From the sequence record MZ234022.1: a stretch of DNA of 39,845 bases; one strand, written 5' to 3'. Under the pieces are notes generated by a model. It was not told where the DNA came from. It searched no databases and was given only the letters and a program-made list of their open reading frames with translations. This document shows, in pieces, positions 10,679 to 23,382 of the stretch. How positions within the stretch are numbered: the stretch's first letter is position 1; each line of letters begins with the position of its first letter. The DNA is from Escherichia phage vB_EcoP-101120B1-2. Both the position numbers and the translations under genes were made by a program.

Positions 10679-10790
10679 GTACCACATCAACACGAAACAA
10701 CGGTGACGACCAACACTGAAACGGTCTACCTGAAGTCCTCTGACTGAAGGGAATGCTCTTTAACAATCTGGATAAACTCTTAATGTGCGC

Positions 10791-18992: not shown

Positions 18993-19151
18993 ATGACTGA
19001 CGTAGAGAAGAAGTACATCGTGGAGCTTGAGGGTCGCATTCAGTCCTTCGAGGTTCCGGTGTACGCAAAGTCTCTTGAAGAGGCTACCCTGAAGTCCCAA
19101 GAGTATGAGGACGCTGGGTTTGTGGTCGGACGGATTCGCCCTGAGACCTAA
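18993..19151 (+). CDS. gp2 homolog (inhibitor of host RNA polymerase), 52 aa
   Basis: [33 protein letters not shown] matches T7 gp2 [42 protein letters not shown]. Below the track threshold. Confidence 0.75.
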
Positions 19152-19169
19152 ACTATCACTGTAGGACAG
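19147..19169 (+). promoter_or_regulatory. Phage RNA polymerase promoter variant (phi2.5 position), CTAAACTATCACTGTAGGACAGA
   Basis: Core with A to G change (CACTGTAGG instead of CACTATAGG). Confidence 0.6.
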
Positions 19170-19208
19170 ACGTCCAGTTCGTAACTTTAAATTAGGAGAT
19201 TTACACCA

Positions 19209-19907
19209 ATGGCTAAAGAGCAACTGAAGACTTTCACCACTCCGGTAGCTGGTATCGTTGAGCCTTACGCATGGCTGAACAAAGCAGACACCAAGTTTAA
19301 TGAACGTGGTGAGCATAAGGTTAACCTGACATTCGACCTGAGCAACCCGAAGGTCCGTAAGATGATTGATGTCTTACAGAAGATTCACGACGATGCGTAT
19401 GCGAAAGCACTCGCAGACCACGAGAAGAACCCACCTCAGGTTCAGCGTGGCAAGAAGCCTATTGAACCACGAGAGGGCGACATGCCGTGGATTGAGAATG
19501 GGGACGGTACTGTTACCATGAAGTTTAAATGCTTTGCGTCTTACCTGAAAGACGGCAAGTCAGAGCCTATCGTATTACGGTTCTACGACACTGATGCTAA
19601 GTTAATCCGTGACGTCCCGAATATTGGCGCTGGCTCCAAACTGAAGGTCAAGTTCAAAGTCCTGCCGTTCAAGTGGAACGCTGCGACTGGTGCAAGCGTT
19701 AAGCTCCAGCTTGAGTCCTGCCGTCTGGTAGAACTGAAGGAGTGGAAAGGTGATGGTGCTGGTGGTGATGGTGGCTGGGGTGACGATGAAGACCTCGGTA
19801 CTGGGTACAAAGCGTCAACCGATGGTGACTTCGGGTCTGATGACTTCGGTGACGATGGTTCCGAAGGTGGTGACGACTCCAGCTCTGGTGGCGATTACGA
19901 CTTCTAA
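19209..19907 (+). CDS. Single-stranded DNA-binding protein (gp2.5 homolog)
   Basis: 232 aa; FKCFASYLKDG, GAGSKLKVKFKVLPFKWNAATGASVKLQLES match T7 gp2.5; acidic tail ending DYDF. Confidence 0.95.
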   Translation: MAKEQLKTFTTPVAGIVEPYAWLNKADTKFNERGEHKVNLTFDLSNPKVRKMIDVLQKIHDDAYAKALADHEKNPPQVQRGKKPIEPREGDMPWIENGDGTVTMKFKCFASYLKDGKSEPIVLRFYDTDAKLIRDVPNIGAGSKLKVKFKVLPFKWNAATGASVKLQLESCRLVELKEWKGDGAGGDGGWGDDEDLGTGYKASTDGDFGSDDFGDDGSEGGDDSSSGGDYDF

Positions 19908-20362
19908 TGGCCCAATGGTCTGCAAAACGGGGGCACTCTGTGGGTGCCTACCGCTCTGGACTTGAAGCCAAGAACCAGCAGTGGCTGGAACAGAACGGCG
20001 TCAAAGCGGAGTACGAAAGCCATTATATCAACTATGTGATTCCGGCTTCCGACCACAAGTACACACCAGATTTTATCCTTCCCAACGGTATCATCGTGGA
20101 GACCAAAGGTATCTTCGATAGTGATGACCGTAAGAAGCACCTTCTGGTACGAGAACAGCACCCAGAGTTAGACATCCGGTTCGTGTTCTCAAGTTCACGC
20201 TCCAAGCTATACAAAGGGTCCCCGACCACGTATGGCGCATGGTGCGAAAAGAACGGCTTTAAGTTTGCCGACAAGTTTATCCCTGTTGAGTGGCTGCGAG
20301 AGGCGACTGTACGTCTGCCTTCAGGTATACTCATTCCCAAGAAGAAAGGAGTTAAGAAATGA
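19907..20362 (+). CDS. Endonuclease I (gp3 homolog, Holliday-junction resolvase)
   Basis: VIPASDHKYTPDFILPNGIIVETKG...DDRKKHLLVREQHPELDIRFVFSSSRSKLYKGSPTTYG matches T7 endonuclease I. Confidence 0.95.
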   Translation: MAQWSAKRGHSVGAYRSGLEAKNQQWLEQNGVKAEYESHYINYVIPASDHKYTPDFILPNGIIVETKGIFDSDDRKKHLLVREQHPELDIRFVFSSSRSKLYKGSPTTYGAWCEKNGFKFADKFIPVEWLREATVRLPSGILIPKKKGVKK

Positions 20363-20850
20363 GCCAGAAGTTTAAACTGTTAGTAGATATATATGGTTGG
20401 CCTCGTGGGACTATCGTTACCAAGTGTAAGAAGGACCCAGCTCCGTTGCCTACCCTTACCCTAGTTGAGTGCCAGACTCCAGGCAAATACAAACATGGGC
20501 CTAACGGCTTCAATACTCAGCCTAAGGGCATGTGGGGAGCATGGATTGCTGACAGATATCTTGAGGAAATCAAACCAGAAGAGGAACTCACTGGTGTACA
20601 GACCACTCAAGTCCTTCCAGCTTCGAGCGTACCTCCTGTGACAGTGAAACGCGAAGTCCTGACCATCGACAAGATTGGTGTAGGCCAGACGTTCATCGTC
20701 CATGGAAAGCCTGAAGAAGTTTACGTGAAGATTAGCAACTCACACGTCTTCAACCATAAGCATCTCCAGATGCACACCACGGACGCACAACGCTTCACCC
20801 AGCACCTGAATCTGGTTGTCGTAGAATTGGTGGTGTACAATGGTAAGTAA
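20359..20850 (+). CDS. Hypothetical protein (163 aa) inserted between the endonuclease I and amidase genes
   Basis: SD AAAGGAG upstream of ATG, translationally coupled on both sides; no T7 gene at this position; no motif recognised. Confidence 0.6.
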   Translation: MSQKFKLLVDIYGWPRGTIVTKCKKDPAPLPTLTLVECQTPGKYKHGPNGFNTQPKGMWGAWIADRYLEEIKPEEELTGVQTTQVLPASSVPPVTVKREVLTIDKIGVGQTFIVHGKPEEVYVKISNSHVFNHKHLQMHTTDAQRFTQHLNLVVVELVVYNGK

Positions 20851-21298
20851 GGTACAGTTCAATCCACGGTCCCGGACCGACGCTATCTTCGTTCACTGTT
20901 CGGCTACCAAGCCAGAGATGGACATCGGGGTAGAGACCATCCGTATGTGGCACAAGCAGCAAGGCTGGCTGGACGTAGGCTACCACTTTATCATCAAGCG
21001 CGATGGTACTGTGGAAGAGGGACGCCCTGTCAATGTCGTAGGGTCACACGTTAAGGACTGGAACTCACGGTCTGTAGGCGTCTGCCTTGTAGGTGGAATT
21101 GACGCTAAGGGCAAGTTTGAAGCTAACTTCACTCCAGCCCAGATGAACTCCCTGCGCAACAAGCTGGCTGACCTGAAGGACTTGTATCCTCAGGCAGAAA
21201 TCAAGGCTCACCACGATGTAGCACCAAAGGCTTGCCCAAGTTTCGACTTGCAGCGCTGGCTTAACACTAACGAACTGGTCACTTCCGACCGAGGCTAA
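20840..21298 (+). CDS. N-acetylmuramoyl-L-alanine amidase / T7-type lysozyme (gp3.5 homolog)
   Basis: TDAIFVHCSATKP, GWLDVGYHFIIKRDGTVEEGR, GVCLVGGIDAKGKFEANFTPAQMNSLR, HHDVAPKACPSFDL, ELVTSDRG match T7 lysozyme. Confidence 0.95.
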   Translation: MVSKVQFNPRSRTDAIFVHCSATKPEMDIGVETIRMWHKQQGWLDVGYHFIIKRDGTVEEGRPVNVVGSHVKDWNSRSVGVCLVGGIDAKGKFEANFTPAQMNSLRNKLADLKDLYPQAEIKAHHDVAPKACPSFDLQRWLNTNELVTSDRG

Positions 21299-21588: not shown

Positions 21589-21667
21589 GTCTCCATAGCT
21601 CAAACGGTAGAGCGGTGGGTCGTGATGGCCTATTGCGATTAGGGTTCGAATCCCCGTGGAGACGCCA
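21589..21667 (+). tRNA. tRNA-like element: canonical acceptor stem, D-arm, T-arm and 3' CCA, but a non-canonical anticodon region (possible degenerate tRNA or tRNA-like processing signal)
   Basis: GTCTCCA (21589-95) pairs perfectly with TGGAGAC (21657-63), followed by G and CCA. D-arm GCTC-AAACGGTA-GAGC. T-arm TAGGG-TTCGAAT-CCCCG with one A-C mismatch. No 5-bp stem with a 7-nt loop and U33 could be folded in the intervening 26 nt. Confidence 0.4.
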
Positions 21668-21678
21668 CTAAGGAGTGA

Positions 21679-23382
<1,704 letters not shown>

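Follow-up and report, generated by a model that had tools for sequence, protein, structure and literature searches.

The gene between the endonuclease I gene (gp3) and the lysozyme gene (gp3.5) of Escherichia phage vB_EcoP-101120B1-2 (MZ234022.1) encodes a 163-residue protein, gp3.2, in which a constant C-terminal module is joined to an N-terminal module that is, with near certainty, an exchangeable cassette. Of all features of gp3.2, this combination of a fixed and a replaceable half is the most informative. Structure prediction indicates, again with near certainty, that the protein consists of two SH3-like small beta-barrels with an acidic spacer and, next to it, a conserved Pro-rich connector between them (Table 1). 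The stretch of DNA analysed here, referred to as the window, comprises 39,845 nucleotides and belongs to a Kayfunavirus (K1F-like, Autographiviridae/Studiervirinae). The gene itself is not new: it has been on record, invariably as a hypothetical protein, ever since annotation of the K1F genome. New are the two-barrel architecture, the constancy of the C-module, and the swappable nature of the N-module. The literature searched contained no description of such a modular cassette pattern and no functional study of gp3.2, the sole mention of “gp3.2” being an entry in a BLAST table of a Citrobacter phage paper (PMC4925675).

Table 1. Features of the gp3.2 locus in window coordinates, with Nei-Gojobori estimates of dN/dS from 12 type-A alleles.
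Feature	Position	Strand	dN/dS	Remarks
Phage-RNAP promoter-like motif CTAAACTATCACTGTAGG	19148..19170	+		Upstream of gene 2.5; likely start of the transcription unit containing gp3.2
gp3, endonuclease I (upstream neighbour)	19907..20362	+	0.12	Pfam PF05367, E=8.6e-82
Shine-Dalgarno AAGGAG of gp3.2	20346..20351	+		In the final codons of gp3, 7 nt 5' of the ATG; read from the sequence
gp3.2 ORF	20359..20850	+		163 aa; ATG start; stop codon within the coordinates
N-module, type A (aa 1-72)	20359..20574	+	0.29	dN 0.27, dS 0.95; predicted SH3-like beta-barrel; exchangeable, fast-evolving cassette
Acidic spacer KPEEELTGVQT, then conserved Pro-rich connector QVLPASSVPPVTVKR (aa 73-96)	20575..20646	+		
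Linker (aa 71-96)			0.13	
Constant C-module (aa 97-163)	20647..20847	+	0.08	dN 0.03, dS 0.40; predicted small SH3-like beta-barrel
Weak SD-like GGTGGTG and ATG of gp3.5	20829..20842	+		Both in the final gp3.2 codons; translational coupling
gp3.5, Amidase_2 lysozyme (downstream neighbour)	20840..21298	+	0.10	Pfam PF01510, E=7.7e-17

An earlier, sequence-only reading of the window had described a 163-aa ORF with a strong Shine-Dalgarno sequence between the endonuclease I and amidase genes, translationally coupled on both sides, and the ORF is present at exactly the position reported. Both overlaps that it gave can be read in the sequence: 4 nt (ATGA) with gp3, whose TGA stop occupies 20360-20362, and 11 nt with gp3.5, whose ATG lies at 20840-20842. 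The overlaps are conserved among relatives, with 4 nt or 1 nt on the gp3 side and 11 nt on the gp3.5 side, and GAAAGGAGTTAAG followed by AAATG, TGATG or TAATG is kept in all 12 of the 12 type-A loci. The same gp3.2/gp3.5 coupling arrangement is reported for Citrobacter phage SH3 (PMC4925675). The adjacency of genes 3 and 3.5 in T7, on which the earlier reading relied, was confirmed as well. The end of gene 3 and the start of gene 3.5 share base 10706 with no gene between them, and gp3.2 thus represents an insertion relative to T7. What that reading missed, while being right that the gene is real, inserted, coupled and free of known motifs, is the two-module architecture with its exchangeable N-terminal half.

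The sequence-only reading had also named a frameshift artefact as the outcome that would undo it. Apart from the short overlaps with both neighbours, nothing speaks for an annotation or sequencing artefact, whether as a spacer without coding function or as an extension of gp3 or gp3.5 produced by a frameshift. A tblastn search of 50,697 phage records returned gp3.2 homologues in 220 records, in which the frame is conserved, and the gene is intact at all loci examined. It has a strong Shine-Dalgarno sequence of its own, dN/dS is well below 1, and the structure models of both domains are confident. Moreover, HMMs of the N- and C-modules matched neither gp3 nor gp3.5. As they did not match T7 ORFs either (see below), gp3.2 did not arise by a frameshift that fused or split its neighbours, and the artefact explanation is considered refuted. 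It is near certain that gp3.2 is a genuine gene, far beyond a chance reading frame.

The window is 100% identical in the gp3.2 region to Escherichia phage vB_EcoP-101120B2 (MZ234023), and its gp3.2 is 100% identical to QZI79843.1 of that record, labelled hypothetical protein. The K1F and EcoDS1 annotations call the gene 3.2, with 77% and 86% identity of the respective proteins to that of the window, and Cronobacter phage Dev2 has a “gp3.2” of 74 aa. All these proteins belong to one family and are encoded at one position, between genes 3 and 3.5. The Dev2 type differs from the window protein in having no N-module and is otherwise not different in kind. PHROG 16385 is matched over the full length (hmmscan E=2.6e-91, residues 1-163 against positions 1-157 of the 157-position profile) and PHROG 15211 by the C-terminal barrel (E=3.1e-39, residues 94-163). 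The SNSHVFN...QMHTT...RF motif of PHROG 15211 is present, its columns being invariant or nearly so in the alignments, and the gene has the position expected of a Kayfunavirus gp3.2, i.e. between genes 3 and 3.5, on the same strand and overlapping both. Since all homologues are annotated as hypothetical only, this membership brings no function with it.

In line with the earlier statement that no motif could be recognised, Pfam gave no match for the window gp3.2 (E up to 1) or for ten variant proteins, NCBIfam gave none for the window gp3.2, and PADLOC-DB returned 0 families at E up to 1. The latter result says little on anti-defence because PADLOC covers defence systems and not anti-defence proteins. 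A sequence-profile search of the PDB gave a chance match at E=1.1 as its only hit, with none below E=1. PHROGs recognise the family only, and the N-module types other than A (see below) had no PHROG match. When 1.84 billion cluster representatives were searched with a profile, the 18 clusters retrieved all belonged to the gp3.2 family, and neither remote relatives nor homologues from cells were detected among these representatives. Profiles of both modules run with hmmsearch --max against all six-frame ORFs of T7 reached E=0.77 at best, the tblastn matches included neither T7 nor T3 records, and permissive HMM searches of the other ORFs of the window gave no match to either half of gp3.2 (best E about 0.8). 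Homology to a characterised T7-group protein, the second finding that the sequence-only reading had regarded as fatal, was thus not encountered, the homologues being themselves uncharacterised. Judged by these searches, the gp3.2 family is restricted to phages. HNH homing endonucleases are the usual inserted genes of T7-group genomes, e.g. T7 genes 2.8 and 3.8, and such an identity was considered for gp3.2 and rejected in view of the absence of a nuclease motif and of a Pfam match. Elsewhere in the genome, the gene between gp18.5 and that for the large terminase is annotated as an HNH homing endonuclease in MZ234023.

The C-module carries the near-invariant motif Y-x3-SNSHvFn-x4-QMHTT-x3-RF, with the core VYVKISNSHVFN-x4-QMHTT-x3-RF, in which N132 is replaced by Ser in one relative. 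The motif is kept even in the Providencia-phage versions, which are only 31-37% identical to the C-terminal fragment of the window protein when counted over the whole alignment. In the local tblastn match, PSTCR2 shares 47% identity with the window gp3.2. Dev2, Peacock and many other relatives have no N-module and encode the C-module alone as a protein of 74-75 aa. Short matches dominate the tblastn output: at least 80% of the protein was covered in only 54 of the 220 records, most records matching C-terminal residues only, and the partial matches start at about 62, 73, 84 or 94 and run to 163. A rough estimate from this spread assigns the C-module-only form to about 40% of the phage records. 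The Pro-rich connector occurs only together with an N-module, and its codons 89-97 showed significant purifying selection in a site-wise test. Overall, it is near certain that the C-module is constant, evolves in the manner of a core gene, and is able to stand alone. Among the metagenomic sequences, P0122, P0144 and P0147 (103, 107 and 87 aa) carry three independent in-frame deletions of most of the type-A N-module with connector and C-module intact, and P0123 has an apparently frameshifted type-A N-module. These four sequences suggest that the N-module was lost repeatedly while the C-module was retained.

At least nine sequence-unrelated N-modules fill the slot ahead of the C-module, and none of them was encountered at another location. 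Type A is found in the window, K1F and EcoDS1, type B in the STP-SP and PRF-SP Salmonella phages, type C in SEA1f, Vec13 and IMM-002, and type D in CR8. Types E1, E2 and E3 belong to Providencia-type phages, and types F and G to metagenomic sequences. No homology was detected between any two of these types (hhalign probability ≤12%). Types B and C are present in 21 and 27 phage records, respectively, always in this slot beside endonuclease I, and stacked modules exist as well, with A and B preceding the C-module in P0110 and A and C' in P0096. A common origin of the N- and C-modules by duplication was considered separately and is unsupported (hhalign probability ≤12%).

The boundaries of the exchange are visible at the DNA level. 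In blastn comparisons with Kayfunavirus relatives carrying other modules, the window is 84-97% identical through gp2.5-gp3 (about 74% throughout with Caroctavirus CR8), and homology to the other-module phages breaks at 20356-20363. It resumes at 20606-20609 for types B and C and at 20658 for type D and the short forms, and then extends through gp3.5. From these breakpoints and resumption points it follows that the end of gp3 and the connector/C-module act as homology arms around the exchangeable segment. GC3 is 0.49 in the N-module versus 0.59-0.65 in the neighbours, and the N-module type does not track the host genus cleanly. Within type A, alleles diverge down to about 57% N-module identity with the scaffold intact; a scan of metagenomes for further type-A alleles yielded only six loci. 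It is near certain that the N-module is a cassette which is exchanged at sharp breakpoints and accumulates substitutions rapidly.

Additional ORFs were observed around the slot. In Providencia phage PSTCR2 (L008, 1246-2278) it holds three ORFs, namely a divergent gp3.2 (152 aa) and ORFs of 117 and 79 aa. The 117-aa ORF, separate and downstream of gp3.2 in PSTCR2, is fused directly to the C-module in P0150. Salmonella phage STP-SP6 (L004, 1487-1936) has a 149-aa ORF between gp3.2 and gp3.5 that, by eye, resembles an HNH-type homing endonuclease and disrupts the usual gp3.2/gp3.5 overlap. Two further loci, L012 (PE3-1-like) and L026, carry an insertion of ~450 bp between genes 2.5 and 3, corresponding to about 19911-19931 of the window. 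T7 gene 2.8, an annotated endonuclease, sits at the matching place, which marks the gp2.5/gp3 junction as another variable slot.

The difference between the modules is equally apparent from the substitution rates (Table 1). dN is higher in the N-module than in the C-module by a factor of about 8, and within the N-module dN/dS amounts to 0.17 in predicted strands and 0.32 in loops. A SLAC-style parsimony count with 25 alleles gave dN/dS values of 0.50 for the N-module and 0.10 for C-module plus connector. Significant purifying selection was found for 27 of the 72 N-module codons, comprising a scaffold of Gly, Trp and Pro residues together with C23, D26, K45 and H46. Conversely, about 20 loop codons (9-12, 16, 28-34, 39, 43, 64-67) change on nearly every branch at an approximately neutral rate. 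The N-module is thus best described as a constrained fold with hypervariable loops. No region of gp3.2 has dN/dS >1 among the type-A alleles. Site-wise positive selection was nominal at codon 64 only (p=0.03) and was lost after correction for 72 tests, the power of the test being limited by synonymous saturation (about 4 changes per site). Diversifying selection on the loops is possible, and relaxed loop constraint accounts for the data equally well.

These data bear on the question whether the N-modules matter to the phage at all. If only the C-module were functional, the N-modules would be near-neutral passengers acquired by illegitimate recombination and decaying in a permissive slot. The prevalence of the C-module-only form, in as far as the rough estimate given above can be taken at face value, would be expected from this, as would the repeated in-frame deletions, the lack of significant positive selection, and the lower GC3 of the N-module. 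Still, a decaying passenger is difficult to reconcile with the codons under purifying selection and the confident barrel model, with the persistence of type A on an intact scaffold at the lowest identities observed, and with a connector that is tied to the presence of an N-module and itself under purifying selection. We consider this explanation very unlikely.

Structure models were obtained with AlphaFold2. With a 51-sequence alignment, residues 1-70 of the N-module were modelled as a five-stranded barrel at pLDDT 88-95; the C-module, whose alignment contains next to no variation, was for that reason not resolved in this model. With an alignment of 27 sequences of greater diversity, the C-module was modelled as a small barrel of six strands and a short helix (pLDDT 81, >90 in the core). 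The modelled fold is that of the SH3-like barrel (SH3 domain superfamily). In BFVD, the matches were limited to the family itself and uncharacterised phage proteins, hence the folds tell shape and not function; other fold matches include the KOW domains of NusG and Spt5, uL2 and EF-P. The structural comparison recommended in the sequence-only reading delivered two modelled barrels, albeit of a generic fold from which no function could be read. Both barrels are basic, with a pI of 9.4 for the N-module and 9.2 for the C-module, and the spacer between them is acidic (4.05).

Barrels contacting DNA or RNA are well known, e.g. the N-terminal barrels of Hpy99I, Sso7d, the integrase C-terminal domain, KOW domains, and ribosomal protein uL2. 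On this basis gp3.2 might be a nucleic-acid-binding accessory factor in replication, recombination or transcription, its two basic barrels contacting DNA or RNA. The pI of both modules would suit such a role, and so would the matches to the NusG and Spt5 KOW domains, uL2 and EF-P and the placement of the gene among those for SSB, endonuclease I and primase-helicase. The fold matches are generic, however, and T7 and T3-type phages manage without gp3.2. A universal substrate is, furthermore, ill-suited to an N-terminal half that is swapped among at least nine unrelated modules or lost altogether. A nucleic-acid-binding role is regarded as unlikely, though the basic tandem barrels are compatible with it.

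The promoter-like motif CTAAACTATCACTATAGG occurs in 9-11 copies in the window, and the next copy after the one at 19148 lies at about 21522, before gene 4. As these motifs flank the region and none is located within gp3.2, the gene is part of a 2.5-3-3.2-3.5-3.7 unit. A search inside gp3.2 revealed neither promoters (phage or sigma-70) nor a convincing terminator nor an Rfam family, and a cause of its conservation at the level of DNA or RNA was rejected for want of such an element within the ORF.

The position of the gene raises the question of a functional link to its neighbours. As a partner or modulator, gp3.2 could temper endonuclease I, or tune either the activity of the lysozyme or its inhibition of the phage RNA polymerase, with the coupling setting the stoichiometry. 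The conserved overlaps with gp3 and gp3.5, the location of the gp3.5 Shine-Dalgarno sequence within gp3.2, and the equality of the C-module rate with the rates of gp3 and gp3.5 are compatible with this idea. In addition, gp3.2 adjoins gp3 in all architectures, including PSTCR2 and STP-SP6, where ORFs precede gp3.5. The same two phages break the adjacency to gp3.5, however, and gene order is rigidly conserved throughout the T7 group, so that adjacency as such carries little information. Given also that gp3 and gp3.5 of T7 function without such a partner, and that the turnover of the N-module would be left unexplained, we find a neighbour-directed role rather improbable.

Several features of the wider genome should be mentioned. 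Compared with the canonical T7 map, the genome sequence is circularly permuted: its first base falls within gene 16, and the early region, which includes Ocr and the RNA polymerase, is located at ~11-16 kb. A tRNA-like element is present at 21589-21667 (+), downstream of the promoter-like motif at ~21522 and ahead of gene 4A, which starts at 21682. ARAGORN calls it tRNA-Ser(TGA), and its score for Rfam RF00005 is 38.7 bits (E=7e-6), above the gathering threshold of 29. Its acceptor, D and T arms look canonical and its anticodon arm looks odd; the element is unannotated in MZ234023. At the same position, SEA1f, an ST31-like contig and LM33_P1 have a 79-nt call, but of tRNA-Thr(CGT), and the element is absent from K1F, EcoDS1, Dev2, Peacock, CR8 and T7. 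tRNAs are unusual in T7-group phages. Lastly, a 55-bp tandem duplication in gp3.5 of vB_EcoP-22664BS1 (L077, ~1095-1160) shifts the frame, and the deposited endolysin of this phage starts at a downstream ATG. Either an error of assembly or a true lysozyme mutation may lie behind this duplication.

Our preferred reading, held tentatively and short of an even chance, is that gp3.2 serves host takeover or counter-defence as an adaptor that binds proteins. The protein would be produced together with the class II (DNA-metabolism) gene products, from the transcript starting upstream of gene 2.5. The C-module may perform the core task through its near-invariant polar patch (SNSH..N....QMHTT...RF), and this task would be docking on a conserved partner, which might come from the replication or transcription machinery of the phage or be a host protein that is itself conserved. 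Tethered by the acidic spacer and the Pro-rich connector, the N-module would serve as an interchangeable specificity module that recognises a variable host or defence factor by protein binding. Phages would exchange it by recombination, with the conserved gp3 end and the connector/C-module providing the homology arms. Binding of a variable host factor by the N-module would make gp3.2 most likely a host-takeover or counter-defence factor, and the turnover of the N-module cassette fits a host-interaction or anti-defence role, the latter being among the roles (regulatory, nucleic-acid or anti-defence) put forward in the sequence-only reading. Only a lead in this respect is the gene content of this lineage: according to the MZ234023 annotation, Ocr, gp1.2, gp2 and gp5.7 are present, and homologues of the gp0.7 kinase, gp4.5 and gp5.9 are absent, which leaves room for non-homologous replacements.

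A more specific version of the adaptor reading is speculative and, as it stands, unlikely: gp3.2 would be a plug-and-play counter-defence adaptor in which the C-terminal barrel docks on a conserved phage or host machine and each N-terminal barrel neutralises or recruits a different immunity or host-range factor. If this were true, recombination of cassettes at the slot between genes 3 and 3.5 would tune the range of strains on which K1F-like phages can grow. Type-A gp3.2 is carried by about 54 of the 220 records with a family member, and gp3.2-carrying phages are isolated in many places with a view to treating infections by E. coli, Salmonella, Klebsiella and Enterobacter. The combination of a constant and a swappable module gives an otherwise anonymous ORF a clear experimental handle. 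If the N-modules are determinants of host-factor or defence specificity, gp3.2 offers a compact natural scaffold for host-range engineering and also a set of small binders; if not, it is one more conserved phage ORFan.

In comparison with known systems, the likeness to other SH3-like barrels, such as those of eukaryotic SH3 domains, FeoA, the C-terminal domain of DtxR/IdeR, the Hpy99I N-terminal barrels, KOW and Tudor domains, is one of fold only. The SH3-like domain of DtxR/IdeR comes with a Pro-rich linker, too. Unlike members of the SH3, FeoA and KOW families, gp3.2 has no sequence-profile match, and similarity at the level of the SH3-like barrel does not imply shared function. The functional proposal draws instead on the small, non-essential class II proteins of T7 (gp1.2, gp2, gp4.5, gp5.5, gp5.7, gp5.9), which bind host proteins. 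They resemble gp3.2 in small size, class II location, patchy presence and restriction to phages, and it is this resemblance on which our guess at a host-takeover function is based. gp3.2 differs from them in having no sequence homology to any T7 ORF and, with regard to the acidic DNA mimics gp5.9 and Ocr, in being basic. To our knowledge, a two-module cassette architecture has not been described for any of these small T7 proteins. For this architecture the tail fibres and tailspikes of the T7 group provide a parallel. Compared to them, gp3.2 is small, presumably non-structural, encoded in the DNA-metabolism region and without homology, and its polarity is reversed in that the C-terminus is the constant part. 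By analogy, gp3.2 and the tail fibres and tailspikes may nevertheless follow a common design, in which a conserved anchor carries a specificity module that is swapped at conserved junctions.
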